Source: Rhodothermales bacterium
GTDB lineage: Bacteria > Bacteroidota > Rhodothermia > Rhodothermales > JAHQVL01
Length of the DNA: 64,000 bases
Reading direction: 5' to 3'
Assembly: GCA_045106435.1 (NCBI GenBank)
Contig: JBGCEN010000084.1
Span: forward strand, 9,231-73,230
Of the stretch, positions 1 through 64,000 are shown one piece after another; the first letter of the stretch is position 1, and each line of letters starts with the position of its first letter. The position numbers and the translations under genes are program-made. Below the pieces are notes generated by a model that worked only from the letters and a program-made list of their open reading frames with translations, was not told where the DNA came from and ran no database searches.

Positions 1-549
1 CTTGGCCGGCAAGGAGTGGCCACCCTGTTGGAAGCGCTTGGAGCAGTGCATAAAGACATGGGCAACACCACCGAAGCACTAGATTATTTTGAACGGGCTC
101 GCAGCCTTAAACAGGAGCTATACGACATCGATCCGTCCAACGGAGAGATGGGCAATATGCTTGGAAATACATTGCGCTCTTTGTGCGTGTTCTATGCCGA
201 GATTGGGCAGCATCAAAAAGCAACAGCTCTGTGCAAGGAATCTGTACTGATTCTCGATAAGGCTATTTCAGTTGATCCGCTTAATGGAATCTGGCAGTCG
301 AACTTGGTGGATTCTTACCTCGCATTGGCAGATGCTCATCAGGTACGAAGCGCCATCGTCTCAACCAGGAATCTGGAGCAACAAAGTTTACGCGAATCCA
401 TGGTTTACTACGACAAAGGCATTGCCCTAATCCAGTTATTGATTGCTGAAGATAGAGCATTCAAGTGGTCCGCAAAGCTAGATAGCCTTCAAGCAATGAG
501 AGAGTTAATCAAGCAAAATCTGACAAAGAATTCAGCTCTCCAGCAATAG
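1..549 (+). CDS. TPR-repeat protein, C-terminal portion (5' end lies outside the window)
   Basis: Frame 1 is open from nt 1 (LGRQGVATLLEALGAVHKDMGNTTEALDYFERA...) to TAG at 547-549. It shows a repeated helical-pair pattern typical of TPR. Track ORF 16..549. Confidence 0.6.
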   Translation, partial: LGRQGVATLLEALGAVHKDMGNTTEALDYFERARSLKQELYDIDPSNGEMGNMLGNTLRSLCVFYAEIGQHQKATALCKESVLILDKAISVDPLNGIWQSNLVDSYLALADAHQVRSAIVSTRNLEQQSLRESMVYYDKGIALIQLLIAEDRAFKWSAKLDSLQAMRELIKQNLTKNSALQQ

Positions 550-562
550 ACTGCTTATATAT

Positions 563-610
563 GCCGACTCACCGACTCACCGACTCACCGACTCACAGAC
601 CAACCGACTC
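563..610. repeat. 8-bp tandem repeat (ACCGACTC)n, about six units, between convergent genes
   Basis: Read directly: gccgactc accgactc accgactc accgactc acagacca accgactc. Confidence 0.9.
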
Positions 611-1378
611 CTATGTCGTATCAACCGGTACCTTTGACGTCGGGGACGACATGTTGGAATCTGCTTCGTGCGGATTGAGGGTGCCTTGGGAATGACGCCA
701 TTGCGTGGCAAAATGTAGCAAGGCAGATACGCTTTCGAAGTTCAGCTTTTCCTTAACGCGCCGGCGATGCGTTTCTACCGTTTTGCGGTCAAGTTTCAGG
801 CGGTCAGCCATATCCTGAGGGCTTGCGCCTTCGCCCATCATCAGCAAGACAGCCAGTTCTCGATGCGTGAGTAAGTCCATGGCCTGTTTTTTTACAGCGC
901 CGGGCCCTTTGGTAATTTTGTTTAACAGTCGCGCGGTCATCGAAGCACTGAGGAAGGTCTCGTTGCGCATCACGCTGCGGATGCCTTCTAGAATATCTGA
1001 AGTGCCGGTGCGCTTCATCATGTAACCCATCGCGCCGGATTCAATGGCGCGCTCTGCAAAGATCTTTTCGTCGTATTGAGAGAAAACGAGGATCTGCAGA
1101 TTCGGCTGCTGGGCAACCAGTTGCATGGAAAGATCAAGTCCGTACGCGTCATCCAGAGATAGTGAAATAATCACGACATCTGGCTTGGCTATGGTAATGT
1201 GGTCAAAGGCCTCTGAAGCAGACGTAGTTTGTCCGCAGTAGATCATGTCCTCTGTGCGTTTAAGCAATCCGGAGAAAGCGTCTCCAATGGCAGGATGTCG
1301 ATCTATAACCAATACGCGAATACGTCTGGGTACTGAATTGTCAGAAGGGTACTTGGGGTGTAATATCACGTTGCCCAC
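611..1378 (-). CDS. NarL/FixJ-family response regulator (REC + LuxR-type HTH) with an atypical receiver
   Basis: REC-like N-terminus (RVLVIDRHP..., ILVFSQYD, GAMGYMMKR). C-terminal LuxR HTH (LTHRELAVLLMMGEGASPQDMADRLKLDRKTVETHRRRVKEKL). At the expected phospho-acceptor position the sequence reads PDVVIISLSLDD, with Ser where NarL has Asp in PDLILLDLNMPG. Confidence 0.85.
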   Translation of the reverse strand: MGNVILHPKYPSDNSVPRRIRVLVIDRHPAIGDAFSGLLKRTEDMIYCGQTTSASEAFDHITIAKPDVVIISLSLDDAYGLDLSMQLVAQQPNLQILVFSQYDEKIFAERAIESGAMGYMMKRTGTSDILEGIRSVMRNETFLSASMTARLLNKITKGPGAVKKQAMDLLTHRELAVLLMMGEGASPQDMADRLKLDRKTVETHRRRVKEKLNFESVSALLHFATQWRHSQGTLNPHEADSNMSSPTSKVPVDTT

Positions 1379-1759
1379 TCTGTGTTAGGGTGAATTCCTT
1401 CACCAGGTGAAGAACAAAGGGGGCTAATAAGAGGTCGATGGAGGGGTGCTCATCGAGAGCGAATATCCTACCTGCAACAAGCATGCCGATGCATTAAAGA
1501 CGGAGAATACGTCAATATTGGGGGCGCGGATACTTTTGTAGCTGCGAGAATGTCATTCTGGAGGATTCGTATCGTTTCGAGATTGACGCCGGCGTAATGC
1601 AGTGCCTTGCCGAATATGAGTAAATTTAAAACCGCAGGTAGAACAAGGAATCATGCATGCATAGAAAAATACGCAAAGCGCTTCAGGATTGGATCTCCAT
1701 TGATCAGTGTTCGATATTCAAGCCGTTATCCATTTGGCAACGTCGAATGCCGGGCATCT

Positions 1760-2252
1760 TTAAACAGACGTGCTGAAAAACCGCCGGCATTTTTCCAGTA
1801 ATTGCTTCAGGAATTGTTCTGGCACGATTGCGGGTTTCGCTTGTGCTTTTAATTGTTCGCCAGAAAGATGTGTGTGTTTTATTAAGCGCATGTGGGGCTT
1901 CTCCATCTCGGGAAAGAACACAGGGGTGAATGCTTCGTCATGAATCAACTCTAAAAAAGTATGCGATGGTAACGCATCATCTACGATCAACGGTGTAGAT
2001 TTCTTCATTGCTTGAGACTTGTTTGGGAGGGCAGTCGATAAAGAGCAAAAGAGACAGACTTTCTTTCCAGAGAACTGAAAATCTTGCCTGCGAGAGGAAA
2101 AGTTTTCCCTGATTGGTCACAGGTTTGTGCCATGATGTGTCGTATTGTTTTCCGGCAAATCTCTTACCAGCAATGATGGAAGGGTAGATTGTTTGAGAAT
2201 AAAGAGAAGATGATGCGTGTCGGGTAGCGGTTAACATGGGACAAATATCCAT
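1760..2252 (-). pseudogene. Two overlapping ORFs in different frames (1977..2252 and 1760..2008); possibly a frameshifted or degraded gene of unknown function
   Basis: The ORFs overlap by 32 nt in different frames and I recognise no family. The surrounding 1.38-2.47 kb lacks any long clean ORF. Confidence 0.2.
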
Positions 2253-2487
2253 CTACCTATAAACAATCTTGGCCAGGTACAAGCGGTTGGTTTAAGCTCC
2301 AGATGTTTAATGATTCTGTGAATTATTCATGCAACTGAGTGCATCCATGCGAGTTAATAACAAGGTGATTGCGATTTACGACTTCGGCCTCTCTATCGCA
2401 CAGTAGTTAAAATTGCTGTAATGGTCTCGGAATTTGTAATCGGCAGTCAATTTCAATAGCGCTTGAACGGCAACTCTCTGGCACACT

Positions 2488-2557
2488 GCGAAAATGCAAT
2501 GGAGCGAAAATGCAAATGGAGCGAAAATGCAAATGGTGCGAAAATGCAAATGGTGCG
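2488..2557 (+). repeat. 17-bp tandem repeat x4 (GCGAAAATGCAAATGGW) spanning the 5' end of the 2527..3249 CDS
   Basis: Units at 2488-2503 (16 nt, one A missing), 2504-2520, 2521-2537 and 2538-2554, followed by a partial gcg. Each unit carries two ATG triplets. Confidence 0.9.
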
Positions 2558-3249
2558 GCAATTCGGGATGGCTCCTCAAAATTTCGAAAGAAAGTCTGTG
2601 CCAAAAATGTGAAACAGAAGTCAAAATGCGCGTGCTGCATGCAACGCGTGTATTGAATGAAAATCTGAACCTGATGCGTCGTGCAAAAGAAATTGACACG
2701 CGGTTGGCCAAAGGGCAAATGGCGATCAAGCAATTGCAGGAGTTGGTTCCTTATTACCAAAAGGGGCTTGTTAAATTAGATCCATCCCCGCAGGAATTGG
2801 TTGCTCGCATTTACATGGCTGAGCGTAACATCACAAATGAGCACATCGAAAGCCTGTTCAAGGTGGCTGCAGCGCAGGCCAAGAAAGCCTCTTCCAGTGC
2901 CGCAAGAGGACAATACCTTACAGAATTGGTTGAAGCCGTAGACAAATACAAGGCCCAGCTTGGGAAATCAAACGAAATGCGTTGGCGCAAGCGACTTGAA
3001 GCGGATCGTGGGAAGCTGCTTGTTGAGAATGCAGGAAAAGATGCCGGCAGTGGCAAGCGTGATATGGCCATAGACCAGTACATCGAGGCACTGGATATGC
3101 TTCGCGCTGATGATAATGGCGATCCTGCTAACAAGAACAGGATTGAGCAAATCAAAAAACGCATTAACGATCTGGGCGGAAAAGTCCCGGACAACTGGGA
3201 GAAAGCTATGAAGAGTGGAGGCGATGGATTGCCGGCGGACAACAATTGA
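2527..3249 (+). CDS. Hypothetical protein with an N-terminal CxxC...CxxC zinc-ribbon and a long helical region
   Basis: Track ORF 2494..3249. In-frame ATGs at 2494, 2527 and 2533. N-terminus MQMVRKCKWCGNSGWLLKISKESLCQKCE. The remainder is Lys/Glu/Ala-rich and helical. No family recognised. Confidence 0.5.
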   Translation: MQMVRKCKWCGNSGWLLKISKESLCQKCETEVKMRVLHATRVLNENLNLMRRAKEIDTRLAKGQMAIKQLQELVPYYQKGLVKLDPSPQELVARIYMAERNITNEHIESLFKVAAAQAKKASSSAARGQYLTELVEAVDKYKAQLGKSNEMRWRKRLEADRGKLLVENAGKDAGSGKRDMAIDQYIEALDMLRADDNGDPANKNRIEQIKKRINDLGGKVPDNWEKAMKSGGDGLPADNN

Positions 3250-3418
3250 GTAAAGTCTCGTTGCTCACTTTTGGAAGGTTTTTGATTCGGGTTGCGGATT
3301 CTTCGCCAGAGTTTATTTACATGCATTCTCCGGGCATAACATGCCTGTTGAACACAAGGTAAAATATCTCTAAGAATCCACAACCCGAATCAAAATCGGC
3401 ATCACACGTATCCTCCGC

Positions 3419-3529
3419 TCAACCTCCAAAGCCTAAAATAGCAACGGAGAGGAAAATAAATAGAAAAGCGAGAATGGCCAAGGCCAGGCTAAACGCAGTG
3501 CCCCATGAGTTAGTACTACTCGGTCTCAT
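3419..3529 (-). CDS. Candidate small hydrophobic peptide (36 aa), speculative
   Basis: My own translation: MRPSSTNSWGTAFSLALAILAFLFIFLSVAILGFGG, stop TGA at 3419-3421. It has one predicted TM helix and lies in a 1.4-kb region with no other convincing ORF. Confidence 0.15.
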   Translation of the reverse strand: MRPSSTNSWGTAFSLALAILAFLFIFLSVAILGFGG

Positions 3530-4140
3530 ACAAGGAAAAGGTGTTAAAGCTTTACGAAAAGCGAGTGAGGAAAGGGGCCTCGGAAGGGCGTGCACTTAAT
3601 ATAATATGTTACCAATCTGTATTGTGCCGAATGTGTCATAAAAGTTTGGTAACTGTGCTGCAATCACAACCCTGGCTCCATTTCCATAAGAAATGAGAAG
3701 GATACTTGAAGATCTCCTCTACACAGCTAATTCCTCGTCATCATTGTAAGATCTGAAAAATAAGAACAGGTGCACTACGTCATGTAGAGCGAAGCCAATC
3801 TTTGCAAGGTCTGTGCCAGTGGGGCAGAAAATCTGCCGTCGAATACGCCACACTCCTGTGTCTGTCTTTGCCCCGAATGGGATGAGCTGATGAATGGAAT
3901 TCGAAATGAAGCACGTGCTTATTTGGCGAGGCTCATTGTGGCGCAATCGGATTGGCGCATGGCATATATGTGTGCAAAGTATGAAGTATGTGACCAAACT
4001 ATTTCGTGAATGTGCTCGTTTGTGCAAAATAGGCCATTTACGACGGGCAGCGGAAACCGTATGGAACTGGATTTCGTCTTATCTTCACTATCGAAAACCC
4101 CTAATTATGCTCACATATTGAGCAAAAACCCCTGGCCATC

Positions 4141-4230
4141 ATGGCACTTTTTGCGCTCCTCGCTTTTGTATTCCTGATTGGATTTTTGGCGTTTTTCCAG
4201 CCCGACCGCCGGCAGTCCAGACGCCTTTAA
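4141..4230 (+). CDS. Candidate small hydrophobic peptide (29 aa), speculative
   Basis: My own translation: MALFALLAFVFLIGFLAFFQPDRRQSRRL. A hairpin (gctgatt...aatcagc, about 4288-4315) lies roughly 60 nt downstream. Confidence 0.15.
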   Translation: MALFALLAFVFLIGFLAFFQPDRRQSRRL

Positions 4231-4662
4231 TGGCGCACGTTTAATGGGTTGATCTGCGCTTTAGGATTGGCGTAAATCCGGTTTTAGGCTGATTGATTTC
4301 CACATGAATCAGCTTTGCTCTTCATTATTGCTTCATGTTTCATTGCGCAAAGTAAAGTAAATCTTTCCGCACAGGTTACTTTATTTCCATTTATTTGACC
4401 ACGGTCCCGCCACTGTTTCACTTCTCACGTGCCTTTTACTGGCCCCTGTCTGCTTAAAAGGGGCGAATCCGACAATCTATTCCAGCCTGGAAGCCTACAT
4501 TCTACCCCAAAATGCGTGTTTTTTGAGGAGTAGATATTTCTACGAACCCCTACGCACATCCTGATAGGCTGACTTCCTTGCTCAAATAGATTGATTGAGC
4601 GATAAACGATAAACGAATCCACATTAAGAAATGCGCATCGAGGTATGAAATACCTGAGCTAA

Positions 4663-8277: not shown

Positions 8278-8294
8278 AAGCGATGAGCTTTTGT

Positions 8295-8507
8295 AAGCTG
8301 TTGAACAGGCTTTGGTTTATGTGACCGCCGATCGCCTCTGTTGTAATAGAGCATAATCTGGATGTCTTCAAAACTGCAGACTGGATTGTGGATCTCGGGC
8401 CGGAAGGCGGCCATAAAGGAGGTGAAGTCATCGCTGCGGGCCGGCCTGAAGAAGTTGCTGCTGAAAAGAAAAGCCATACAGGCCGATATCTGAAGCAGAT
8501 GCTGTAA
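8295..8507 (+). pseudogene. uvrA: 3'-terminal remnant of an excinuclease ABC subunit A (UvrA-family) gene
   Basis: My own translation of the frame with codons starting at positions divisible by 3: [69 protein letters not shown]. It has the hallmark UvrA C-terminus ([19 protein letters not shown]...G.PEEVA...SHTG..L). There is an in-frame TGA at 8322-8324, no start codon, and nothing UvrA-like upstream. Confidence 0.8.
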
Positions 8508-8838
8508 AATATGTATTGATACGTGCAGTATGTAAGATTTTGCACGCTTGTCGCTCAATTTGTGCTTCTTGTTATATCTCCTTCTTCTTATCTGGAATAC
8601 ATACTGCGACGGTATGTCCATTTGGACACATTAGTATATTTCAACACGTGTCTGTGTGGACACAAGATGCTATTTCTTGCAATATATAAGCTAAATATGC
8701 ATTGCTGTAACGTGTTGTCTGCCAATGCTTTATGTGAATTATTGGGGTGAGGTAATTGGTTTTGGCCTCCCGCTTGTAATCAGGGTTGGTGTACATGGCT
8801 GAAAGGCCGCAAGCTATACCAACCAAAGGAGGACCATT

Positions 8839-9988: not shown

Positions 9989-10031
9989 AAAGTAATGGGT
10001 AAACAGTTCAAGGGCTAAAGGTGGCAGACCC

Positions 10032-16001: not shown

Positions 16002-16211
16002 CGGGGCTTATAGCAAGAGTTGTTGTGCCTGATACTGTGCTATTCTTCGACAGCAAGCCGGCGAGCAAAACATACTGAGAGCAAAAGTTCTAGGCCTGTG
16101 AAATAACCAACACACCCGGCTTGAAAAATCCGCTGTCTGATGTGAATCTAAACACCGCCTGAAATAAATAACTCTTAAGCCCAATCAAGTGCTTAAGGGT
16201 TTCATTTCATG

Positions 16212-20887: not shown

Positions 20888-22747
20888 CTACTTTTTTTCT
20901 TCTGGAGGCATTTCCACGCGAATATGCAGATCCTTGAGTTGGTGATCATCCACAATGTCTGGAGAGGACACCATGAGCTCTTGGGCAGACTGCGTTTTAG
21001 GGAAGGCGATGACGTCGCGGATGTTTTCGGTGCCGGCCATGATCATGGCAATGCGGTCCAGTCCCATCGCGATGCCGCCGTGCGGTGGCGCGCCATATTC
21101 AAGGGCTTCGAGTAAAAAGCCGAAGCGACGACTGGCTTCTTCCTCTTCTATGTTCAGCAGTTTGAACATCTGGTTCTGGATTTCGCGGCTATGAATCCTG
21201 ATGGATCCACCGCCAATCTCATGACCATTAAGAACAAGGTCGTACGCGCGTGCACGCACAGCGCCCGGTTCTTCAAACAGCTTGTCGAAGTCTTCTGGAA
21301 GTGGTGAGGTAAACGGATGATGCATCGCATGAAAACGCTGCCCATCTTCATCCCAGTCAAGGAGAGGGAAGTCTGTGACCCAAAGGAAATTCCATGGACC
21401 AGCATCTCCTGCAGGAATCATGTTTAAGTCTTTAGCCAAATGGAGGCGCAGCGTGCCCATTTGCTCAAAAACTTTAGGATCTGTTCCTGCGAGTACCAAG
21501 ACAAGGTCGCCGGCTTCAGCGCCGACTGTTTTAACGGCATTATCTACAAATTCAGTTGGCAACACTTCTGCTTTAACAGAGCAGTGAATTGCTGAGCCGT
21601 CAGAAGGCAGTTTAAAGTAAACAAGGCCGCCGGCACCGATGCGCTTGCGCACGATGTCTTTGTCGAGACGGTCCATTGCGCCGCGTCCTCTGTCTCCTTC
21701 TCCCGGTACCTTGATGGCAACGATCTTGCCACCCGAGTCGATCACGTTATCGAATACCCGGAAGCCAGATCCTTCAAAATCTTTACTGATGTCGTGTATT
21801 TCAAGTCCGAAGCGCAGGTCTGGCTTATCGCTTCCGTAACGGTGTACGGCGTCGTGATAAGACATCCGCGGGAATGGGACCGGTACTTCGATTCCTTTAG
21901 ATTCACGGAAGAGCGAAGACATCAAATCTTCAATCAAGCTGTAGATGATTTCTTCCGTTGCAAAAGAAATCTCGACGTCCACCTGGGTGAATTCTGGCTG
22001 GCGGTCAGCGCGTAAGTCTTCATCGCGAAAACACTTTACAATCTGAAAATAGCGGTCGAGGCCGGCAATCATCAGGATTTGCTTGTAGGTTTGTGGCGAC
22101 TGTGGCAGGGCATAGAACTGGCCGGCATGAATACGGCTGGGTACGAGGAAGTCGCGCGCGCCTTCGGGCGTTGACTTCATGAGCATGGGGGTTTCCACTT
22201 CGAGGAAGCCATGCTTAACAAAAACACTGCGGGTTGTCTGGTAAATGTGATGGCGCAGTACAAGTTTTTCTAATAACTCAGGCCGACGTAGATCCAGATA
22301 TCTGTAGCGGAGACGTAATTCCTCATTGGCCAACTTCCGCTTTTCTTCGTGCGAAGAGACAGCAAAAGGAACTGGCTGCGAGGTATTTAAAATAAACAGG
22401 CTTTGGACGCTCACTTCAACAGAACCTGTTGGAAGCTTTTGGTTTTTGGTCTCTTCAGATCTTGGGCGCACAAGGCCCTCTATAGAGATGACATCTTCCG
22501 TGCGTAAACTTTCAGCTTTGTTATACGCTTCCTGATTATCCTGAGGAGATAAAACAATTTGTGTCAGACCATAACGATCTCGCAGGTCAATAAAAATTAC
22601 GCCGCCAAGGTCACGTCGTGTATCGACCCATCCTTTTAGCACGACGTTTTGTCCAACGTTAGATTCACGCAGTTCGCCACAGTTGTTAGAACGTTGTGGG
22701 TGCGCGTCTACTTCTGAAATTAATCGTATGGTTTGCTGTTCTGCCAT
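20888..22747 (-). CDS. aspS: Aspartate--tRNA ligase
   Basis: 619 aa with full-length similarity to bacterial AspRS. N-terminal OB-fold region (VVLKGWVDTRRDLGGVIFIDLRDRYG), motif 2 FRDEDLRADRQPEFTQVD, and motif 3 region PHGGIAMGLDR. Confidence 0.95.
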   Translation of the reverse strand: MAEQQTIRLISEVDAHPQRSNNCGELRESNVGQNVVLKGWVDTRRDLGGVIFIDLRDRYGLTQIVLSPQDNQEAYNKAESLRTEDVISIEGLVRPRSEETKNQKLPTGSVEVSVQSLFILNTSQPVPFAVSSHEEKRKLANEELRLRYRYLDLRRPELLEKLVLRHHIYQTTRSVFVKHGFLEVETPMLMKSTPEGARDFLVPSRIHAGQFYALPQSPQTYKQILMIAGLDRYFQIVKCFRDEDLRADRQPEFTQVDVEISFATEEIIYSLIEDLMSSLFRESKGIEVPVPFPRMSYHDAVHRYGSDKPDLRFGLEIHDISKDFEGSGFRVFDNVIDSGGKIVAIKVPGEGDRGRGAMDRLDKDIVRKRIGAGGLVYFKLPSDGSAIHCSVKAEVLPTEFVDNAVKTVGAEAGDLVLVLAGTDPKVFEQMGTLRLHLAKDLNMIPAGDAGPWNFLWVTDFPLLDWDEDGQRFHAMHHPFTSPLPEDFDKLFEEPGAVRARAYDLVLNGHEIGGGSIRIHSREIQNQMFKLLNIEEEEASRRFGFLLEALEYGAPPHGGIAMGLDRIAMIMAGTENIRDVIAFPKTQSAQELMVSSPDIVDDHQLKDLHIRVEMPPEEKK

Positions 22748-23059
22748 TTTATCTCATTCACGTTACAGGTTGCCAGTTTTATTAGGAGATGTTGCTGGAC
22801 GGACCAGAGACAATCAATATCAAACTTGCAACCAAACACAGAATGAATTCTGTGTTTGTGTATAGCTATTAGCCTTCAGAACTATTAGAATTAGTGCTGA
22901 TTGCCGAACTGTGTTTACCCGGTTGACCATCATTTGCCGGCCAATTTCGAATTTGGGTTGTAGATTACAGCGGAGCTGCGTGATTGGTTGCACACTTCTG
23001 TGAAAAAAGCCCTTCCATCACGCGAAATATATTTCTACCGATTAATCTGGGAATTTTAA

Positions 23060-25161: not shown

Positions 25162-27084
25162 CTAAAACGTCGGCGTAAGTCTTAACCACAATGTCGGGTC
25201 TTTCTGTCCACCAACCTCTTTGAGTGGCCACGCGAGTTCGAGGCGGATGGCCCGGTCTGCGAAGCTGAGGCCAACACCGGCTGCGGGCAGGATATCATTG
25301 ATATCAAAAGTATCGGTACCATTGTTATTCACCCAGCCGGCATCTCCAAATCCAAACAACTGGACATCACTGAAGATGTCGTCAAGTGGAGAGATGTTCG
25401 CAATTGTGTACTCGACATTGCCCAGCAACATACGCGTGCCGTAGAATGCATTCTGCGGGTAAGCACGTACAGATCCTACGCCACCCAGCGTAAATAACTT
25501 CTGGATAGGCGCATTCTCGGATGCATACCCACCGCGGAAGCGGAAGCCAAGACTGCTGCCGTAGCCAAATGGGATGTAGAATCGCATGTCTCCCAGGTAA
25601 CGAGAGAAACTGAAGTCGCCACCAAGCCCATCGCCAATTTCGCCTTCAAATCGGAAGGCTGAACCTCTGGGTACGCTGTGCAATCCTGAAAGCTGACCGC
25701 CTTCAAGTGCGATGACAACAGAGTTCATTTGCCCTTCGCTTACGAGGGGGTTGAATCTGAAATTGCGTCCGCCAAATAGCGACCAATCTGCTTTGTTTTG
25801 CAGGCTGCCGTATTCTTCAGAACGATATCCCACGCTCAACTGTGCATAGGCAGAGAGTCGCTGAATGGCATAAGCCGAGATACCTTGGACATTGTAATAG
25901 TCGAGGAAATCGTATTCGAATAACATGGCTGCAATGGAGTTTTCAACCCAATTGACTTTCCAGATGTCGTTCGTTGTGGTATTGTCACGATAAGAGACAC
26001 CGAGTTTGAAATCAAAATCGTCGTCCAGGTAGGGGAATGGGCGTACTTCAGCGCCCACTTCATAGCGTACATCTTTGAGTGCAAAGGCGTAGCCGGCCTG
26101 TCCGTAAATTTTTGCGGATTCCCAATCGCCCCATTCCAATGGCATCAATCTGCCGCCAAGTACAAGTCCTTCAACTCTATTGTAACGGATTGCAGGGATT
26201 GGGCGGTATAAAGCGGTTTCTCTGTAAGGCCAGCGATTGTAGAATTCGCCTACATAAGCGTCTGCATAGTCAAAATCATCAAATGGAGATTGTGCTTTCT
26301 CGCGGTAGCGATGGTAGGTCCATGTACTGGTTTCGTGGCGAACCTCATCTTTTGCTTCTTCAACCGCCATTCTCGCTTCTGAAATACCTGAGCGGACTTC
26401 GTCCATGGCTTCGTTGTAGGAAACGCGTACATCAGTCATTGTATCGCGCGCATCATTACTCCTGCTGTCCTCCCTGTCATTCTCAGTGTCGCCACTTCCT
26501 ACTTTGCGGCCGCCTCTATATGCACCCGGTTTTAGCCATGGATCATTTGTATTGTTGTTCTCGATCTCTGCATCTGCAATGGTAGGAGCTGTTTGTTCAG
26601 AGAAAATCATCCTGCGGGTTTGTACAACCGCGCTGTCAATGCCTTTTTCAACCGGTTGGAGTCGGTCTGCCAACTCATAGTCATTTTCAGCCTCAAGTGT
26701 TCTGCGAATGTCCCGGATCTGATCAGATAACTCGCTGAGAGTATTTTCGAGGGTCTGAAGATCTGAAATAGACGTAGGCATTGGGGCTGCCTCGTTGTTT
26801 GCTTTTGCAGCTGCCGTCAGAGATGTATTTGGTAAAGACTGATTTACTGCATTCAGCCTGGATGCAAGGTCCTGCAACTCAGATTGAACGCTGCTCCCCT
26901 CATTTCTTAGTGTGGCCGTTTTAATGACCTTAACCATGGTACCAAGCGCAGATTCAATGACATTTCGCTCTGCTTTGTATTCATCAGCAGATAATGAATC
27001 GGCTTCCTGTGCCTGAAGGGTGGTGGGTGTAATAAGGAGAATGGCCAGGAGGCTGAAAAAGAAGTAGTAGCAACGATTGTTCAT
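25162..27084 (-). CDS. Outer-membrane beta-barrel protein of the Omp85/surface-antigen (D15) type with a long coiled-coil/acidic N-terminal region
   Basis: Signal peptide (LLAILLITPTTLQAQ). The C-terminal half has alternating beta-strand patterns, FTLGGVGSVRAYP...GNVEY, and a terminal ...LRLTPTF (C-terminal Phe). I did not recognise POTRA repeats by eye. Confidence 0.6.
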   Translation of the reverse strand: MNNRCYYFFFSLLAILLITPTTLQAQEADSLSADEYKAERNVIESALGTMVKVIKTATLRNEGSSVQSELQDLASRLNAVNQSLPNTSLTAAAKANNEAAPMPTSISDLQTLENTLSELSDQIRDIRRTLEAENDYELADRLQPVEKGIDSAVVQTRRMIFSEQTAPTIADAEIENNNTNDPWLKPGAYRGGRKVGSGDTENDREDSRSNDARDTMTDVRVSYNEAMDEVRSGISEARMAVEEAKDEVRHETSTWTYHRYREKAQSPFDDFDYADAYVGEFYNRWPYRETALYRPIPAIRYNRVEGLVLGGRLMPLEWGDWESAKIYGQAGYAFALKDVRYEVGAEVRPFPYLDDDFDFKLGVSYRDNTTTNDIWKVNWVENSIAAMLFEYDFLDYYNVQGISAYAIQRLSAYAQLSVGYRSEEYGSLQNKADWSLFGGRNFRFNPLVSEGQMNSVVIALEGGQLSGLHSVPRGSAFRFEGEIGDGLGGDFSFSRYLGDMRFYIPFGYGSSLGFRFRGGYASENAPIQKLFTLGGVGSVRAYPQNAFYGTRMLLGNVEYTIANISPLDDIFSDVQLFGFGDAGWVNNNGTDTFDINDILPAAGVGLSFADRAIRLELAWPLKEVGGQKDPTLWLRLTPTF

Positions 27085-27195
27085 GGGCTCGGATATATGG
27101 TGTTTACAAACAATAACCCTGAAAAGTCAGAGAACATCAATAAGTACGCGCCAGAAAAAAGGAAGGTTACAAGTTAATTTGGTTTAGCCTTTAGG

Positions 27196-28344
27196 TTATT
27201 GCCTGGCCAGGAGTGCTTTCCATTGATTTTGTACGTAACTGGGGCTAAAAGCTGTGTTGAATTTATCATATGCATTGTTCGAGAAGCGTGTCCATCTTTC
27301 TATATCTGTTAAAGTTGTTACTGCATCAGCAATAGAAGAGGGAGCCTGTGCGGGTACAAACAAGCCTTCCACGTTATTCTGAAGCATCTCGGGAATTCCA
27401 GAATGAGCGGTTGTAATAATTGGGGTGCCGGCATTCATGGCTTCCAACAGCACCAGCGGCTGAGCTTCGGTGGGATAATAGGTTGGTAAAAGGAATGTGT
27501 CGGCCCACAAATGCAGCTTTTTAACTTGTGCCCGATCTGAAACCGGACCCAGGTGCTCTACAATATCGGTAAGGTTGTTTTCTTTGAGGTAGGCTTCAAA
27601 TTGAATATTGTCTTCATCCCGAAGCCATCGGCCGGCAAACCTAGCCTTGCATCGTACGCCTTGCTTATTCAGTAAATTAATTGCTTTCAGTACATCCCAA
27701 TAGCCCTTAGACTCGATCATATTGCTCAGGTATAACAGCCTGATCGTTTGGCGACTGGCTCTGTCTGTTTGCCTGTTTGTTTGCCTGTTGGTTTGTTTCT
27801 CAGCAATTTCCTCTGCTGATGCGCAGACTGCGTCGTCAATGGTATTGGGAATGACCAGTCTTTGCTCAGGTGATAACCAGTCCGCACACTTATCTGCCAG
27901 TTGTTTGTTTAAAAAAACGATGCCTTCGAGTCGCTTAACCAGTACTTTTGCAGACAAGGCTGTTGCTGGTGAGCGAAACAGGCGATCAAAATTACCCCAA
28001 TGCGAAAGCGCGAGAATTCTTTTTGTGGCATTTAACGCAGGATATATGGTGAGCATGTCACGCGTGTGGCCCAGGAGCTGAGGGGAGATTGACGTCCATA
28101 AAAGCGTGCTGCCGGCATGGGCATGAAGATGTTGTTTTAGCCTTTTACCCCCACGTAAATATCTGCGAATCTTCTCCGTGCCCACAGAAGCCCTCGTCTC
28201 TACTTTCCCTTTGTGTCCTTCAATCAAATTGATGCAATCAACGGGTTGGAGTGGGGAGATGAGATCCGCCAAACGTTGCGTAGCCATTGTCTGGCCGGTA
28301 ATTGGGGGCGGAAAATATCCTGCAACACAAATCCTGTCACTCAT
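27196..28344 (-). CDS. Glycosyltransferase (GT4-like, GT-B fold)
   Basis: The C-terminal half has the E-x7-E-type region LLPTYYPTEAQPLVLLEAMNAGTPIITT. The inter-domain linker contains the low-complexity stretch QTNRQTNRQTDRASRQT, encoded by a short tandem DNA repeat near 27755-27800. Confidence 0.8.
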   Translation of the reverse strand: MSDRICVAGYFPPPITGQTMATQRLADLISPLQPVDCINLIEGHKGKVETRASVGTEKIRRYLRGGKRLKQHLHAHAGSTLLWTSISPQLLGHTRDMLTIYPALNATKRILALSHWGNFDRLFRSPATALSAKVLVKRLEGIVFLNKQLADKCADWLSPEQRLVIPNTIDDAVCASAEEIAEKQTNRQTNRQTDRASRQTIRLLYLSNMIESKGYWDVLKAINLLNKQGVRCKARFAGRWLRDEDNIQFEAYLKENNLTDIVEHLGPVSDRAQVKKLHLWADTFLLPTYYPTEAQPLVLLEAMNAGTPIITTAHSGIPEMLQNNVEGLFVPAQAPSSIADAVTTLTDIERWTRFSNNAYDKFNTAFSPSYVQNQWKALLARQ

Positions 28345-35574: not shown

Positions 35575-35577
35575 ACA

Positions 35578-40360: not shown

Positions 40361-41209
40361 TTGATTCTTGAGAGAAATGCGCCGGCGAAGGTGAACTTGG
40401 GGCTCCATGTGTTGCGTAAGCGTGATGATGGATATCATGATATAGAAACAGTTTTTTTACCAGTACAATGGTGCGACCAGGTGCGGGTGCAGCCGGCGGA
40501 GCATATGCAATTTACTTGCTCAGATCCAGGTTTGCCTGTCGATGCATCTAATTTATGCGTGCGCGCTGCAAATATTTTACGGAAGCATTACGGCCTTGAT
40601 AAGGCAGCAGCAATACATCTTGAAAAACACCTGCCGTACGGTGCCGGCCTTGGAGGTGGGTCTAGTGATGCTGCACAAACATTGTGCTTGCTCAATGAAT
40701 TGTGGCAATTGGATCTGAATTATACAACATTACACGCTTTTGCAGCCGAGCTCGGGTCTGATGTGCCCTTTTTCTTACACGAAGATGCCGTGTATGCAAC
40801 AGGCCGGGGTGAATTGCTGGAGCCGCTTCTTGAGCCAGGACCAGGTGCGAAGTATGAATTCCCGTATGTCATTGTTTTGGTAGTGCCTCCGGTGCATGTG
40901 TCAACCGCACTCGCTTATCAGAACATCCAACCCAACGATGAAGAAAGAGCCGATCTTAAAACTGTTGTTTTTTCAAACAACCTGTCCAGATGGCGTACAG
41001 AATTGGTGAATGATTTTGAGACCTCTGTTTTCACGGCGTACCCCGAGTTGAACGAATTAAAACAAGCGTTGATAAACGCCGGCGCCGGCTATGCGGCTAT
41101 GTCAGGGTCTGGGAGTTCACTGTTTGGTGTTTTTGAGGATGCCAACAAGGCGAAGCAAGCCACTCAGCTTTTTACTGTACAGGGAATGACCACCTGGGTG
41201 TCTGGTTAA
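40361..41209 (+). CDS. ispE: 4-(cytidine 5'-diphospho)-2-C-methyl-D-erythritol kinase
   Basis: APAKVNLGLHVLRKRDDGYHDIETVF and the GHMP-kinase motif PYGAGLGGGSSDAA. TTG start as in the track. Confidence 0.9.
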   Translation: MILERNAPAKVNLGLHVLRKRDDGYHDIETVFLPVQWCDQVRVQPAEHMQFTCSDPGLPVDASNLCVRAANILRKHYGLDKAAAIHLEKHLPYGAGLGGGSSDAAQTLCLLNELWQLDLNYTTLHAFAAELGSDVPFFLHEDAVYATGRGELLEPLLEPGPGAKYEFPYVIVLVVPPVHVSTALAYQNIQPNDEERADLKTVVFSNNLSRWRTELVNDFETSVFTAYPELNELKQALINAGAGYAAMSGSGSSLFGVFEDANKAKQATQLFTVQGMTTWVSG

Positions 41210-41800
41210 AGCAATACCCATGTTGCCTCGGAGGAGTTTTTAAATACAACTGCCTATAGCTAAACATGAAGCGAGACTTTTTTCTGTTGATATGTCGTTT
41301 AATTGACGTAGGCCACGTTTAGTTGATTGTGGTGTCTGTGTATTTTAGTGTCTCTGTATTCTAACGTCTCTGTGTTTTTCGGTACACAGTCTGATATCAA
41401 ACCCTGGTCGCACAATATCTTTGTCCTCCGGTTCGTTAAAATTGTATTGCAGGTGGATGTTTAAAACGCTCTTTTTTTGAAGAGCCGGCGGGGTGATTAT
41501 AACTGCCCCAACTCCTTCTGGATGTTATCAAATGATAAAGGGAATGAATCCCGCGTAAGGTTTGTCAGAGATATGTGTTAAACGAAAGGATACATATAAT
41601 AAGGCCATGAATCGCAGTTATCTGGAATTGCTCATTTCGTGGTATGGTACTTGTAAAAGAAAATGGGTCGCGGAGCTTCCGTAGCTATTTTTTTGAAGAC
41701 TGATGTGATTGAAGATATTTTCTAAAGTTTATTGCAAGTCTTGTTAGAACACAGCTTAGTACACAGCAAATTCGCTCTTAGCTAATAGCCTCCCATCGCG

Positions 41801-51713: not shown

Positions 51714-52025
51714 TAACCCTCTTCATGCACGGACTGTCCAAAAATTATCTCGACGCTACACTCGTTTAATTCTCCTGAATTAGATCATCGCTTTCAACTG
51801 TTAAATATCGGTGAGCCGGCGCAACTTGTTCTTCAAAACATGCGTTACTACCGCTGCTATCGCTTCAGTATTTTTTGCTCTGCCCCTGTAAAGTAGCAGA
51901 TACGTTACTGAGAGCAGAATATGAACATGGTTGTTCGCCCCTTCTATGGGGTATTTGCAGTAGACCACCGTCTGAAAAATCTGCAACTTGCGATCATTGA
52001 GAATTAAAATATTTGCTAAATCATA

Positions 52026-53166: not shown

Positions 53167-54654
53167 ATGGCTCCCCGTATGGGGCTAGCCCAATCGATTA
53201 AGAAGTTGGTGCCAGATGCCATCATGGCGTCAGATCAATTTGGACGCGCCGTATCTATAAGCGGCAATACATTGATCATTGGCGCTAATTTTCACGACGA
53301 TATTGCGGAAGACGCCGGCGCTGCCTTTGTCTACGAAAAGGAGGGTGCAGATTGGAATCTGTCTGATACAATTGTATTGACCGAGGGGAGTGACTCTGAT
53401 GGATTTGGATTTTCGGTAGCTGTAGATGGTGATTTTGCCATTATTGGTGCGCTTGGTGATGATGAAAAAGGGATCAATGCCGGCGCTGCCTACATTTTTT
53501 TTCGCGATGGTGCTGCCTGGAGCCTGCAAAGTAAACTCACGGCTAATGACGGCACGGCAAACGATGCTTTTGGCTTCTCTGTGGCAATAAGTGGCGATTT
53601 GGCTCTGGTGGGAGCACGAGGCGCGGATGAGCAAGGCAATAGCTCTGGAGCAGCCTATCTATTTGTCAGATCTAATACCGGATGGGTTCAGCTGAACAAA
53701 CTAATGCCCATCAATGGCACCGGCGGTGATTTTTTTGGTACATCTGTAGCACTAAATCAAAACTACGCAGTCATAGGTGCGCTGCTCGCCAATGGATTTG
53801 ATGATAATTCTGGTGCAGCCTATGTGTTCGAAAACCGGGGAGCCATTTGGCTGGAAGCCGGCACCCTGATTGCAGATGATGGGCGTTCGCTTGACCAATT
53901 CGGTGTTTCTGTTGCACTCAGTGGCGATTTAATTGTGGTTGGCGCCCGGTCCAATGATGACAAGGCGCTGGAGGCCGGTGCAGCATATGTTTTTCGAAAA
54001 CAAGATGACGGTTTTGCGCAAGTAGATAAATTGCTTGCCATTGACGGCGTTGGGAATGATGCCTTTGGTCAGTCTGTTTCGCTAGGAGATTCATACATCG
54101 TAGTTGGTGCGCCCGGGGATGATGATGCCGGTTCAAGTGCAGGAGCAGCCTATCTTTATGAAGAGAAAAATGGCGCATGGCTACAGGTTGCAAAACTACG
54201 ACCCGAAGAAAATCTGACAAACGGAGGGATGGGCGTGGCTGTTGCAGCGAGTGGCACACAAACGGTTGCTGGTGCCTGGGGAAGCGAAGGGGAAGAAATT
54301 GTGCATGGTGCTGCGTTTGTGTTTGATTTATCCACCGTTTTAACTGATCTCGACGTTGAACCATTTATCTCTTCGCGTCTGCTCAAGCAGTTTGCCGCTT
54401 ATCCGAACCCGTTTGTTGGATCGGTTTCTATAGAAGCAGTACTGGCTTCGGCAGGTTGGGCAAAGATTGTTGTACAGGACGTAAGAGGGCTGGAAATTGC
54501 TGTATTGTTTGATGGCTACGCCGTAGAAGGACGCACTGAAGTGTCATGGGATGGCAAGGGGAGAGATGCCAAGCCTCAGCCGGCCGGCTTGTACTTCCTC
54601 TCTGTGATAACCCGGGAGGGGAAAAGATCAATTGGAGTGGTTAAAATCCAATAA
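53167..54654 (+). CDS. FG-GAP-like repeat (beta-propeller) T9SS cargo protein; start codon uncertain
   Basis: About eight repeats of D.FG.SV(A/S).SG....(V/I)GA...D......GAAY(V/L)F. C-terminal CTD AYPNPFVGSVSIEAVL...GLYFLSVITREG. The first ATG after the ispG stop is 53167, but the signal-peptide-like stretch (KSDLAAFCWVVLFCLIAMAP) lies upstream of it with no standard start codon. Confidence 0.65.
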   Translation: MAPRMGLAQSIKKLVPDAIMASDQFGRAVSISGNTLIIGANFHDDIAEDAGAAFVYEKEGADWNLSDTIVLTEGSDSDGFGFSVAVDGDFAIIGALGDDEKGINAGAAYIFFRDGAAWSLQSKLTANDGTANDAFGFSVAISGDLALVGARGADEQGNSSGAAYLFVRSNTGWVQLNKLMPINGTGGDFFGTSVALNQNYAVIGALLANGFDDNSGAAYVFENRGAIWLEAGTLIADDGRSLDQFGVSVALSGDLIVVGARSNDDKALEAGAAYVFRKQDDGFAQVDKLLAIDGVGNDAFGQSVSLGDSYIVVGAPGDDDAGSSAGAAYLYEEKNGAWLQVAKLRPEENLTNGGMGVAVAASGTQTVAGAWGSEGEEIVHGAAFVFDLSTVLTDLDVEPFISSRLLKQFAAYPNPFVGSVSIEAVLASAGWAKIVVQDVRGLEIAVLFDGYAVEGRTEVSWDGKGRDAKPQPAGLYFLSVITREGKRSIGVVKIQ

Positions 54655-58905: not shown

Positions 58906-58964
58906 AACATCGTCAGCCGGCGATGTGCGGGGACTTACAGAGCTACTAACTGGCCTCTCGCCCT

Positions 58965-61864: not shown

Positions 61865-61947
61865 ACAGGGTTCGCCTTTTATGTGTGGCTGATATTCTCC
61901 AAGTTCTTCAGTATTCTTTGGGACGTATCAATTATTTACATACCACC

Positions 61948-63591
61948 ATGAAAAAGCTGACGTTTATCAACGTTCTTCTGTTTGTTTTTCTTTTATCTCC
62001 TGCTATTTCTCGTGCGCAGGGTACAGATGAGCCTAATTGGGGACAACCCAATATCGTATGGATTGTAGCAGAAGATTTGGGTCCATATCTGCCGTCCTTT
62101 GGTGATTCAACCATCGAAACGCCAAACTTGAGCCGGCTAGCAGCGGAAGGGGTTAGATATACGCACGTTTTTTCGCCCTCAGGTGTTTGCGCACCCAGCA
62201 GGGCCGCTTTGGCAACCGGCATGTATCAAAATTCCATTGGGGCCCATCACATGCGCAATGGAGGCAATCCGCTTTACTTGCCTGCAGAGGTGACGCCATA
62301 TGAAGCGATGCCTCCGGCCGGTGTCAAGATGCACAGCGAGTACATGCGCCGGCTGGGTTATTATGCAACGAACAATTCAAAAGAAGATTACCAATTCAAA
62401 AAAACTGTAACAGGCTGGGATGAATCCAGCAGAGAGGCGCATTGGAAGAATCGCCCGGATGCTGATCAACCGTTTTTCGCCATATTCAATATTGGCGTTA
62501 CCCATGAATCTCAGATATGGTCGCGTGCAGATGATTCCTTGTGGGTAGATTCCAAGCTTGAAGTGCCCATACCTCCCTACTATCCAAACACAGAAGTTGT
62601 GCGCAATGATATTCGACGGATGTATTCGAATATCAAGATGATGGATGCACAGGTGGGGGAATTACTCAAGGAGCTTGAAGACGCCGGCGAACTCGAAAAT
62701 ACAATTATCTTTTGGTACACGGACCACGGGGGCCCGCTACCTCGGATGAAACGTCTCTTGTATGATTCAGGTATGCGCGTGCCTATGATTATCCGTTTCC
62801 CAAACCAATGGCGTGCAGGTGAGGTAGATGATCAACTGGTGAGCTTTATAGACTTTAAGCCAACAATCATGTCGCTGGTTGGCATCGAGCCGCCGGCCTA
62901 CTTAAAAGGGCAGGGGCAGGCTTTTCTGGGACCCTATAAAGCCAATGCGCCCCGATCTTATGTGCACGGCGCCGGGGATCGCTTTGATGCGCAATATGAC
63001 CATATTCGTGCCGTGCGTGATCAACGTTTCAAGTATCTACGAAATTATAATCCGGACCAGGGCTATTACCTTGCCGTGAAGTATCGAGAACAGATGGCGA
63101 TCATGCAAGAATTGTTGAAGATGCGTGATGCGGGTACACTTAATGATGTACAGATGCAATGGTTCAGGCCGGCCAAGCCTATTGAGGAGCTTTTTGATAC
63201 CAAAGAAGATCCGCATGAAATTAACAACCTGGCCTCAGATCCTGCCTATGTTGAGAAGCTGGCAGAGTTGAGGGCTGAGCATGATCGATGGATTGTTGAG
63301 ATTGACGACAAGGGCCTTATGACCGAGTCAGATTATATTGATTCGATTTGGGAAAATCGTACACAGCCGGTGATGAGTATCCCTGTTGCCAGGAAGGAAG
63401 GGCGTACGGTTGAGTTATCCGTGGCTACCGAAGGTGCTTCAATAGGATACCAGGTCGTGAGAAAGGGGGAAGAAGCGGGAAGTGTATGGCAAGTGTACAC
63501 TGGGCCGGTTGAAGTCAGACGAGGCCGAGAATTACTTGCAATATCTGACCGTATTGGATATAAAGTAAGTGAAGTGCTCCGGGTTCAATAA
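61948..63591 (+). CDS. Sulfatase (formylglycine-dependent arylsulfatase family)
   Basis: Signal peptide from ATG 61948 (MKKLTFINVLLFVFLLSPAISRAQG). Sulfatase signature SPSGVCAPSRAALATGMY (C-x-P-S-R), plus WYTDHGG. Confidence 0.85.
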   Translation: MKKLTFINVLLFVFLLSPAISRAQGTDEPNWGQPNIVWIVAEDLGPYLPSFGDSTIETPNLSRLAAEGVRYTHVFSPSGVCAPSRAALATGMYQNSIGAHHMRNGGNPLYLPAEVTPYEAMPPAGVKMHSEYMRRLGYYATNNSKEDYQFKKTVTGWDESSREAHWKNRPDADQPFFAIFNIGVTHESQIWSRADDSLWVDSKLEVPIPPYYPNTEVVRNDIRRMYSNIKMMDAQVGELLKELEDAGELENTIIFWYTDHGGPLPRMKRLLYDSGMRVPMIIRFPNQWRAGEVDDQLVSFIDFKPTIMSLVGIEPPAYLKGQGQAFLGPYKANAPRSYVHGAGDRFDAQYDHIRAVRDQRFKYLRNYNPDQGYYLAVKYREQMAIMQELLKMRDAGTLNDVQMQWFRPAKPIEELFDTKEDPHEINNLASDPAYVEKLAELRAEHDRWIVEIDDKGLMTESDYIDSIWENRTQPVMSIPVARKEGRTVELSVATEGASIGYQVVRKGEEAGSVWQVYTGPVEVRRGRELLAISDRIGYKVSEVLRVQ

Positions 63592-63629
63592 TTCCTTTTG
63601 CTCATTTATCCATCTAATGCCTGAATAGC

Positions 63630-64000
63630 TTGTCTGAAGAAATTACATACGATTTCAATGCGCCGCTGTTGAAGTCAATCAATGGGTTTTTGAAGCAGCA
63701 TTATGCGCCGGTTCCTGTGGAAATTGCAGAAGCGGTTATCAAAACCGGGAGCCGGCGCGTCATTGTTGTAATTAATGGAAAAACCATTCGTAGGGCGGTC
63801 CAGAACAGTAAACATGGTGAGTTTTTTATGTTGCTGGGCCAGTCTTTGTTGAAAGAGATCGGCGTTGTGTTAGGTGATGATTTAGCCATTTCACTGAAGC
63901 CGGATCCTGACCCAGATTTTGTAGAGCTGGGGGAAGAATTTGCTGAAGTACTTGAGATGGATGAGGCTGCATCGACCCGTTTCTTCTCATTCACTCCTGG
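63630..64000 (+). CDS. DUF1905 / YdeI-like protein, N-terminal part (3' end outside the window)
   Basis: My own translation from TTG 63630: LSEEITYDFNAPLLKSINGFLKQHYAPVPVEIAEAVIKTGSRRVIVVINGKTIRRAVQNSKHGEFFMLLGQSLLKEIGVVLGDDLAISLKPDPDPDFVELGEEFAEVLEMDEAASTRFFSFTPG. The frame is open to the window end. The listed minus-strand ORF 63701..63994 is Ser-rich and looks spurious. Confidence 0.55.
   Translation, partial: MSEEITYDFNAPLLKSINGFLKQHYAPVPVEIAEAVIKTGSRRVIVVINGKTIRRAVQNSKHGEFFMLLGQSLLKEIGVVLGDDLAISLKPDPDPDFVELGEEFAEVLEMDEAASTRFFSFTP

Follow-up and report, generated by a model that had tools for sequence, protein, structure and literature searches.

The palindromic hexamer GCCGGC is heavily over-represented in a stretch of 64,000 nucleotides from a Rhodothermales bacterium (GenBank assembly GCA_045106435.1, contig JBGCEN010000084.1, positions 9,231 to 73,230; this whole 64-kb stretch is called the window for simplicity and numbered from its first letter). 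We conclude with high confidence that this accumulation takes place at the level of DNA, is specific to one clade and saturates. It is best explained as a highly iterated palindrome (HIP), i.e. a genome-wide tag of this Rhodothermales clade that is driven neither by translation nor by the encoded proteins. Sequences one mutation away from GCCGGC become the full site, either synonymously or, where tolerated, by amino-acid replacement, and this conversion operates in all reading frames as well as in the spacers between genes. Candidate positions more than about 400 bp from any other site are nearly always converted, those near one far less often. Such local saturation results in an evenly spaced array of roughly one site per 440 bp. 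The tag is missing from recently acquired DNA.

Results

GCCGGC exceeds the null models in genes and between them

The window has a GC content of 46.8% and contains 146 copies of GCCGGC (2.28 per kb, mean spacing 440 bp). Base composition predicts 10.3 copies, a first-order Markov model 14.0 and a second-order Markov model 20.1, which corresponds to a 14-fold excess over composition and a 7-fold excess over the second-order model. An earlier reading of the window made from its letters only (called the sequence-only reading) had claimed that the hexamer is over-represented throughout, and its counts were reproduced: all 24 sites reported in nucleotides 1-10,000 were recovered, each at most about 22 nt from the listed position, and the five sites reported in the 1.86 kb of aspS were counted in 1,860 bp (20888-22747). 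Its impression that other palindromic hexamers composed of G and C are rare was mistaken, as the seven others occur 6 to 18 times against 10.3 expected and are thus ordinary and unenriched. A maximal-order Markov model, proposed by the same reading as a check, predicts 107.1 copies. This expectation is inflated because the pentamers GCCGG and CCGGC are mostly the hexamer itself (146 of 203 and 146 of 173, respectively), and still the excess survives with z = 8.9. GCCGGC was by far the most exceptional hexamer of the window (z = 42); the runner-up, CCGGCG, contains part of it. On the plus strand, GCCGG followed by a base other than C occurs 57 times, and the reverse complement, CCGGC preceded by a base other than G, 27 times.

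The enriched unit is exactly the hexamer, as indicated by three observations: CCGG outside GCCGGC occurs at expectation (182 versus about 190), the flanking positions have near-background composition, and the best 8-mer, CGCCGGCG (18 copies), was rejected as an extended motif because its number matches the prediction from independent flank frequencies. Among the rCCGGy words only the strict palindrome is enriched, with ACCGGC/GCCGGT at 1.4-fold and ACCGGT at 0.7-fold in the window. The least frequent pair of one-base neighbors was GTCGGC/GCCGAC (16 versus 23.7 expected).

Genes were modeled as 44 calls based on open reading frames (ORFs), made within the analysis itself. Shuffling of synonymous codons left 23.5±4.4 sites in coding sequences (maximum of 36 in 500 shuffles) while 135 were observed, i.e. 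a 5.7-fold excess. All three codon phases contributed: GCC-GGC was found 89 times against 17.6 in the shuffled sequences, xGC-CGG-Cxx 18 times against 1.3 (13-fold) and xxG-CCG-GCx 28 times against 4.6 (6-fold). The short intergenic spacers (7.7 kb, GC 41%) contained six sites against 0.58 expected (10-fold). Coding DNA nevertheless carries the higher density (2.5 per kb versus 0.8-1.0 per kb in non-coding DNA), and 92% of the sites lie within genes, with a uniform density over the housekeeping and polysaccharide-cluster genes. Neither the Markov models nor the codon-aware null reproduce the excess, and it is not confined to a single phase or explained by codon-pair preference, indicating a cause at the level of DNA. 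The sequence-only reading had argued for such a cause from the occurrence of the word in all phases and in intergenic DNA; the null models, the spacers and the lack of pair preference in non-enriched relatives (see below) bear it out.

One-base neighbors are converted at the expense of codon choice and amino-acid identity

More than half of the Ala-Gly dipeptides in the window (89 of 165, 54%) are written GCC-GGC, whereas about 14 (about 8-11%) would be expected from codon usage outside this context. The one-base neighbors GCA-GGC, GCG-GGC and GCT-GGC are correspondingly scarce, with 2, 3 and 2 occurrences against 18, 10 and 13 expected (together 7 versus approximately 41), and GCC-GGA, GCC-GGG and GCC-GGT were counted 4, 6 and 9 times against 12, 6 and 10. 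Synonymous pairs that are two mutations away from GCCGGC are near expectation, and so is the reversed pair GGC-GCC (14 versus 13.6). In the other two frames the motif is carried by 28 of 79 X-Pro-Ala triplets and by 18 of 36 xGn-Arg-Cxx triplets. The enriched relatives described below likewise use GCC-GGC for 92 of 192 Ala-Gly, while the non-enriched relatives, which served as a negative control, show no pair preference (70 versus 67 expected). In the enriched relatives, GCT-GGC is the least depleted one-base neighbor (12 versus 14 expected). One-base neighbors are thus depleted whichever base they carry, which argues against a T-to-C correction of the Vsr type.

The process has also altered proteins where this was tolerated, as suggested by an excess of the dipeptide itself and by sites that fall on residues differing in relatives. 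Ala-Gly was found 165 times against 115 expected (1.44-fold), while the control dipeptide Gly-Ala was found 127 times. In comparison with more distant relatives, conserved Ala-Gly accounts for half of the phase-0 sites; the remaining ones are mostly aligned to xGly with x being Pro, Ser, Thr, Gly, Val or Cys, all of which a single base change separates from Ala. At phase-1 and phase-2 sites the encoded tripeptides are conserved in 1 of 15 and 1 of 19 cases, respectively. In aspS (20888..22747, minus strand), all five sites (21032, 21509, 21629, 22061 and 22121) are in phase 0 and encode Ala-Gly, and the aligned residues of relatives are AG or xG, where x is P, S, T, G, C or Q.

Sites interfere with each other over a few hundred base pairs

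The sites are spaced more evenly than expected by chance. The coefficient of variation (CV) of their spacing was 0.70, compared to 0.99±0.08 under random placement (P < 0.0002), and the largest gap was 1,335 bp from site to site (site-free interval 26098..27426), compared to about 2,400 bp under random placement. All 354 of 354 control words of similar abundance had a spacing CV of at least 0.81, and the counts of GCCGGC in 1-kb bins were under-dispersed (index 0.45). The even spacing does not come from the underlying dipeptides, since the Ala-Gly dipeptides themselves are randomly spaced (CV 0.99) and randomizing which of them carry the motif gave a CV of 0.95±0.06 versus the observed 0.70 (P < 0.0002). 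Overall, the CV of 0.70 departs from three nulls with P < 0.0002.

The probability that an Ala-Gly is written as GCCGGC depends on the distance to the nearest other site: it rose from 0.35 below 100 bp through 0.56 (100-200 bp) and 0.58 (200-400 bp) to 0.95 (20 of 21) at distances above 400 bp (Mann-Whitney P = 3e-6; permutation P < 0.0005). This distance dependence indicates a local saturation of the accumulation that extends over a few hundred base pairs.

The accumulation is confined to one clade and absent from inserted DNA

For comparison we collected 160 loci anchored on AspS from GTDB and JGI (2.4 Mb, AspS identity at most 73%), and closer relatives were obtained by protein search. The sample thus consists of the one 64-kb window and 10-22 kb per relative, and several of the contingency tables contain small counts. 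Enrichment was expressed as the number of GCCGGC divided by the mean count of its 18 one-base variants. This ratio was 1.3 when pooled over the 160 loci and 11.8 in the window, and no locus with meaningful counts exceeded approximately 4.6. In the closer relatives the ratio of observed to expected copies was 8.5 (AspS identity 89%), 11.5 (87%), 6.5 (86%) and 4.1 and 4.4 (both 78%), followed by 2.0 in L168 (76%) and 8.0 in L169 (72%, a circular contig of 5.8 Mb). GCCGGC is the top-ranking hexamer in six relatives with AspS identities of 72-89% (L162, L170, L164, L165, L166 and L169) but not in L168, L002, L003 and L082-84, and more distant Rhodothermales have ratios of 1.2-1.5. The enriched taxa form one clade in a neighbor-joining tree of the single gene product AspS, with L168 and L001 as exceptions. 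Four species of the clade (L164, L165, L168 and L169) come from one long-read metagenome (ENA ERZ26696514), and their ratios range from 2 to 8.

Two relatives, both Rhodothermales/Bacteroidota MAGs, show the opposite behavior. L001 (13.4 kb) contains one GCCGGC against 15.7 expected and writes none of its 98 Ala-Gly in this way; L018 (21.8 kb) contains one against 7.9 expected, with 1 of 58 Ala-Gly written as GCCGGC. This approximately ten-fold avoidance is the signature expected of an active restriction enzyme of the NaeI/NgoMIV type, and the same word is therefore pushed in opposite directions in sister lineages.

A Logan assembly from another sequencing run (L081, SRR29999185) is 99.8% identical to the window over 10.9 kb and has 21 of 22 sites in common. 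The two differ at 21 positions, one of them in a motif, which is too few for polarizing mutations. A site in aspS (21032..21037) is polymorphic between the two strains: GCCGGC in the window is GCCTGC in L081 (GCAGGC on the coding strand), a synonymous difference. At larger distances synonymous sites are saturated; conserved residues of the window and its relatives have a four-fold codon identity of 0.28-0.37. At conserved Ala-Gly, the motif status was independent between the window and each of four relatives (Fisher's test non-significant in all four, with saturated sites and small counts), indicating that positions turn over and that no site-specific conservation is detectable.

The motif is missing from non-syntenic inserts, namely from a 4.5-kb integrase island in L162, a 3.2-kb segment with a transposase in L164 and 7.8 kb with toxin-antitoxin genes and small ORFs in L165. 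In all three relatives it reappears in the syntenic core beyond the insert. The tag is therefore acquired in place once DNA has become resident. The clade specificity, the even spacing and the absence from mobile inserts lend support to the parallel with the cyanobacterial palindrome HIP1 (GCGATCGC) that the sequence-only reading had drawn.

Positions of the sites and other features of the window

Ordinary chromosomal genes were identified in the window by Pfam and NCBIfam scans, among them aspS, dut, ispG, the gene of a class A penicillin-binding protein and sulfatase genes, together with a Wzx/Wzy/Wzz polysaccharide cluster, cargo proteins with a sorting domain of the type IX secretion system (T9SS) and permeases of the ADOP family (TIGR03434). 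In the first third of the window GCCGGC starts at 5, 760, 1588, 1783, 3043, 3231, 4208, 4825, 4990, 5019, 5146, 5410, 5449, 6082, 6310, 7039, 7763, 7986, 8181, 8440, 9232, 9342, 9733, 9829, 10287, 10584, 10765, 10936, 11599, 11677, 12284, 13251, 13965, 14250, 14584, 14841, 15763, 16057, 16619, 16693, 17964, 18283, 18950, 19315, 19552, 20068 and 20311. The next sites start at 21032, 21509, 21629, 22061, 22121, 22936, 23576, 24526, 24681, 24779, 25336, 26092, 27427, 27631, 28111, 28930, 28966, 29032, 29315, 29904, 30258, 30897, 31338, 32031, 32122, 32476, 32713, 33001, 33606, 33853, 33971, 34687, 34906, 35035, 35047, 35240, 35710, 36243, 36334, 36925, 37432, 38605, 38922, 38971, 39649, 39766, 40381, 40492, 40643, 41078, 41084 and 41484, and the remaining ones at 42395, 42842, 43945, 44614, 45514, 46026, 46126, 46561, 47460, 47953, 48189, 49048, 49570, 49865, 50573, 51815, 52173, 52834, 52959, 53314, 53479, 53857, 54579, 54583, 54807, 54825, 55905, 56571, 56866, 57490, 57655, 58455, 58916, 59168, 59499, 59704, 60216, 60407, 61220, 61310, 61732, 62132, 62348, 62683, 62892, 63168 and 63751. 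Among the few closely spaced pairs are the tandem pair GCCGGCGCCGGC (41078..41089) and the overlapping pair GCCGGCCGGC (54579..54588).

Six sites are intergenic. Those at 8440..8445, 16057..16062, 41484..41489 and 58916..58921 lie in short spacers between ORFs, the one at 22936..22941 in the divergent spacer between aspS and a sodium:solute symporter gene of the SSF family, and the one at 51815..51820 upstream of ispG. A comparison of their contexts revealed no common context, no hairpin and no dyad pairs. Two further stretches, 1379-2493 (1.1 kb) and 3250-4662 (1.4 kb), have no ORF of at least 100 amino acids and no Rfam match, yet they contain GCCGGC at 1588, 1783 and 4208; they could represent degraded genes, small ORFs or an uncharacterized RNA.

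Rfam and tRNA scans of the window found two tRNA genes and no other RNA gene. Both are on the minus strand, tRNA-Leu-GAG at 16211-16295 and tRNA-Lys-TTT at 16375-16448, and both are overlapped by a plus-strand ORF of 101 amino acids (16209-16514) that carries no GCCGGC. This ORF is probably not a real gene, though the matching place on the Logan contig has a gene call. Over half of the 21 differences from L081 (11) fall within about 107 bp of intergenic sequence next to the tRNA pair (16067-16173), a local hypervariable patch or a recombination junction. The longest ORF of ispG (GcpE; 52026-53108) overlaps the downstream ORF of an FG-GAP repeat protein (52942-54654) by 167 nt, and the true start of the latter gene probably lies further downstream. 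GC skew is positive in every 4-kb bin and the cumulative skew rises monotonically, which places the whole window on one replichore.

Some words are under-represented. The non-palindromic pentamer GGAAC/GTTCC is strongly depleted, occurring 27 times in the window against 117 expected from composition and 72 from the Markov model, and hexamers such as GGGAAC are found once against 27 expected. GGAAC/GTTCC is also depleted in the closest relatives (4 versus 22.5 and 4 versus 18.9; noted in L162, L170, L164 and L166), and the depletion is weaker or absent in distant relatives. A Type IIS, Type III or other defense system of the clade may target this word. CTAG (50 versus 247) and hexamers containing it, e.g. 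CTAGTC (0 versus 31), are about 5-20-fold under-represented, and GTCGAC was found twice in the window against 13.4 expected. CTAG avoidance is common in bacteria.

Discussion

Any explanation of the array must yield base-indifferent conversion of sequences one base away, independence of reading frame, slow writing into resident DNA only and diminishing returns near existing sites. We tentatively favor a methylation-linked bias of mismatch repair that would retain new sites of a putative solitary cytosine methyltransferase. GCCGGC would be the target of this resident enzyme, with a predicted specificity of the NaeI/NgoMIV/ScmA type. In the ratchet proposed by Elhai (2015), an error of replication yielding a methylatable site would go uncorrected unless repair is already directed by a methylated site nearby. 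This ratchet predicts a distance-dependent interference as we observed it. The model was devised for Oscillatoria PCC 10802, a cyanobacterium with an rCCGGy methyltransferase in which the words GCCGGC/rCCGGy are over-represented, and it explicitly predicts saturation (PMC4390886). Caulobacter pairs a solitary methyltransferase for YGCCGGCR with a Vsr-like protein (PMC12907096). We rank the methylation and repair explanation first because GCCGGC is a classical palindromic 5-methylcytosine (m5C) target that is tied elsewhere to a solitary methyltransferase and a Vsr-like protein, and we rank it before an uptake tag because GCCGGC also lacks several traits of uptake sequences. A structural site comes third, followed by Vsr over-correction.

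A number of points weigh against the repair bias. Pfam and NCBIfam scans of the 44 ORFs revealed no gene for a DNA methyltransferase, Vsr, a MutH-like protein, mismatch repair or competence within the 64 kb, and a six-frame regular-expression search for C5-methyltransferase motifs (PCQ, ENV and others) returned nothing coherent in the window. The gene models are self-made, and one of them (16209-16514), which overlaps the two tRNA genes, is probably spurious. Even spacing is significant in the window only, as the 10-22 kb samples of the relatives are short or broken by inserts. The Bacteroidota/Rhodothermota group probably uses a methylation-independent mismatch repair that relies on the MutL endonuclease, and to our knowledge the nicking enzyme postulated by Elhai has never been identified, even in cyanobacteria. 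Finally, uptake sequences are just as much characterized by even spacing, by an enriched peptide and by their absence from newly arrived DNA (PMC2817400).

It is accordingly possible, although in our estimate less probable than the repair bias, that GCCGGC (perhaps in methylated form) is recognized as a self-tag by a DNA-uptake or recombination machinery. The word would then accumulate by molecular drive, as do the uptake signal sequences (USS) and DNA uptake sequences (DUS), because alleles with a site would be transmitted preferentially by transformation, with little gain beyond one site per fragment. Such a tag would fit the more-even-than-random distribution, the 1.44-fold enrichment of the encoded Ala-Gly, the occurrence in all frames and at variable residues, and the absence from mobile inserts and from genes without homologs. 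However, a palindrome of 6 nt that is 14-fold enriched, denser in coding DNA and devoid of dyad pairs is unlike the known uptake sequences. No competence gene was found by Pfam and NCBIfam among the 44 window ORFs, and we know of no report of natural competence in this lineage. HIP1 raises transformation efficiency in a methylation-dependent manner, its abundance correlates with a DNA-uptake system, and molecular drive by uptake is now also proposed for it (bioRxiv 10.1101/2024.09.10.611283, 10.64898/2026.06.24.733823). It seems rather doubtful to us that this clade uses GCCGGC to recognize its own DNA, in a methylation-dependent way, during uptake or homologous recombination; if true, the word would be an independently evolved, palindromic and hexameric counterpart of USS/DUS and HIP1, and the interference over a few hundred base pairs would mirror how long the fragments or repair tracts of the reading machinery are. 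The regular spacing, the near-complete use of isolated candidate positions and the uniform density over housekeeping and polysaccharide-cluster genes would also be compatible with evenly spaced sites that are bound by a chromosome-organizing or nucleoid-associated protein and are directly selected. We consider such selection improbable, as motif-bearing Ala-Gly are not conserved between lineages in the four Fisher comparisons and selection per site would be extremely weak; furthermore, we know of no candidate GCCGGC-binding protein. A chromosome-organizing role was proposed for HIP1, the sites of which are reported to be conserved (Xu et al., 2018, PMC5861425).

A preference of translation (codon pair or dipeptide) for GCC-GGC as the spelling of Ala-Gly could draw on the 89 of 135 coding sites that are in phase 0 and on GCC and GGC being common codons. 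Its probability is negligible and we regard it as refuted: phases 1 and 2 and the spacers are enriched 13-, 6- and 10-fold, non-enriched relatives of the same order do not prefer the pair, the reversed pair is at expectation, and use of the pair depends on the distance in base pairs to sites in any frame, so that a translation-level cause fails nearly all of the four required properties. Equally negligible is an origin from copies of a repeat or mobile element, such as repetitive extragenic palindromic (REP) sequences or miniature inverted-repeat transposable elements (MITEs), or from an assembly artifact, for which only the high copy number speaks. The flanks are uninformative, 92% of the sites lie within genes and sites are found at aligned codons of conserved genes. 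A REP- or MITE-type repeat is refuted, there being no conserved sequence beyond the core and no predominantly extragenic location, and an artifact is ruled out by the independent Logan assembly L081, which is 99.8% identical and carries 21 of 22 sites. In very-short-patch over-correction, Vsr and an m5C methyltransferase would turn T:G in near-cognate sites into C:G and thereby inflate the word, an effect that is known for CCWGG in E. coli, where it is far smaller than the GCCGGC excess found here. The low count of GTCGGC/GCCGAC, the lowest neighbor pair (16 versus 23.7), and the rarity of GTCGAC (2 versus 13.4) would agree with it, and GCCGGC is a known m5C target with a Vsr-like partner in Caulobacter (PMC12907096). 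However, depletion in the window affects the A, G and T variants of motif position 3 alike, with the T variant being the least depleted in enriched relatives, and under a context-free repair bias the spacing should be Poisson for the available positions rather than show distance-dependent interference. Over-correction by Vsr therefore fails on base-indifferent conversion and on diminishing returns near sites; we disfavor it and deem it even less probable than a structural site.

The array offers several practical handles. HIP1 has remained unexplained for about 30 years, and since nearly all cyanobacteria carry it, few natural contrasts are available. The Rhodothermales case has such contrasts built in, i.e. 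graded ratios of observed to expected copies (14, 11, 8, 6 and 4), the non-enriched sister L168 and the avoiders L001 and L018. Methylation could be called directly for at least one closed genome of 5.8 Mb from the long-read metagenome, whose four species of the clade lend themselves to comparative and methylome work. The length scale of about 400 bp obtained from the conversion of Ala-Gly has to be reproduced by any mechanism, be it through a repair tract, an uptake fragment or protein spacing. In these genomes motif density separates native from recently acquired DNA, and the GCCGGC excess will skew k-mer binning, codon modeling and digestion with NaeI/NgoMIV in the clade.

Relation to known palindromes and uptake sequences

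Among known systems, the alternative HIP of Oscillatoria PCC 10802 (PMC4390886) comes closest, followed by HIP1. In Oscillatoria the same core word is over-represented genome-wide at a density above about one per kb, it is the target of a Type II m5C methyltransferase, and its phylogenetic distribution is sporadic. That organism is a cyanobacterium, whereas the present case is from Rhodothermales and thus from another phylum. Three of the four rCCGGy words are enriched there and the strict palindrome only here; the methyltransferase is documented there and putative here; and the present case extends over an entire clade, with at least seven genomes.

HIP1 (GCGATCGC; Xu et al., 2018, PMC5861425; Kamoku & Nielsen, 2024, bioRxiv) is likewise a hyper-abundant short palindrome in coding and non-coding DNA with a non-random, quasi-regular distribution, and it is linked to orphan methyltransferases. 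It differs from GCCGGC in being an octamer that is 15-300-fold enriched (here a hexamer, 14-fold), in the reported conservation of its positions (here they turn over) and in a periodicity reported at 10-90 kb (here short-range interference over a few hundred base pairs). GCCGGC shows most features of the HIP class, namely an excess of at least about 10-fold, dispersal over coding and non-coding DNA, lineage specificity and a saturating distribution; positional conservation between genomes, another feature of the class, was not seen in the four Fisher comparisons, in which synonymous sites are saturated.

With the USS/DUS of Pasteurellaceae and Neisseriaceae (Findlay & Redfield, 2009, PMC2817400), GCCGGC shares even spacing, enrichment of the encoded peptide, occurrence in all frames and at poorly conserved residues, absence from recently acquired genes and clade specificity. 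USS/DUS are non-palindromic words of 9-12 nt that are 200-1000-fold enriched, under-represented in coding DNA and often arranged as inverted pairs that form terminators (PMC2817400); none of these traits is found here, and an uptake function has been demonstrated for USS/DUS, while one of GCCGGC would be putative. GCCGGC thus shares several behaviors of uptake sequences but fails the structural criteria of the family. Caulobacter crescentus uses the same hexamer core as the target of orphan methylation tied to DNA repair, through the solitary m5C methyltransferase ScmA (YGCCGGCR) and the Vsr-like VsrA (PMC12907096). Its motif is only slightly above expectation and depleted in intergenic DNA, in contrast to the 14-fold excess that includes intergenic DNA here, and its link to methyltransferase and Vsr-like genes is putative in the present case. 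Full-text literature searches, the coverage of which is incomplete, did not turn up a palindrome of this kind in either Rhodothermales or Bacteroidota. By most of the features of the HIP class the GCCGGC array belongs to it, with an independent origin in another phylum.

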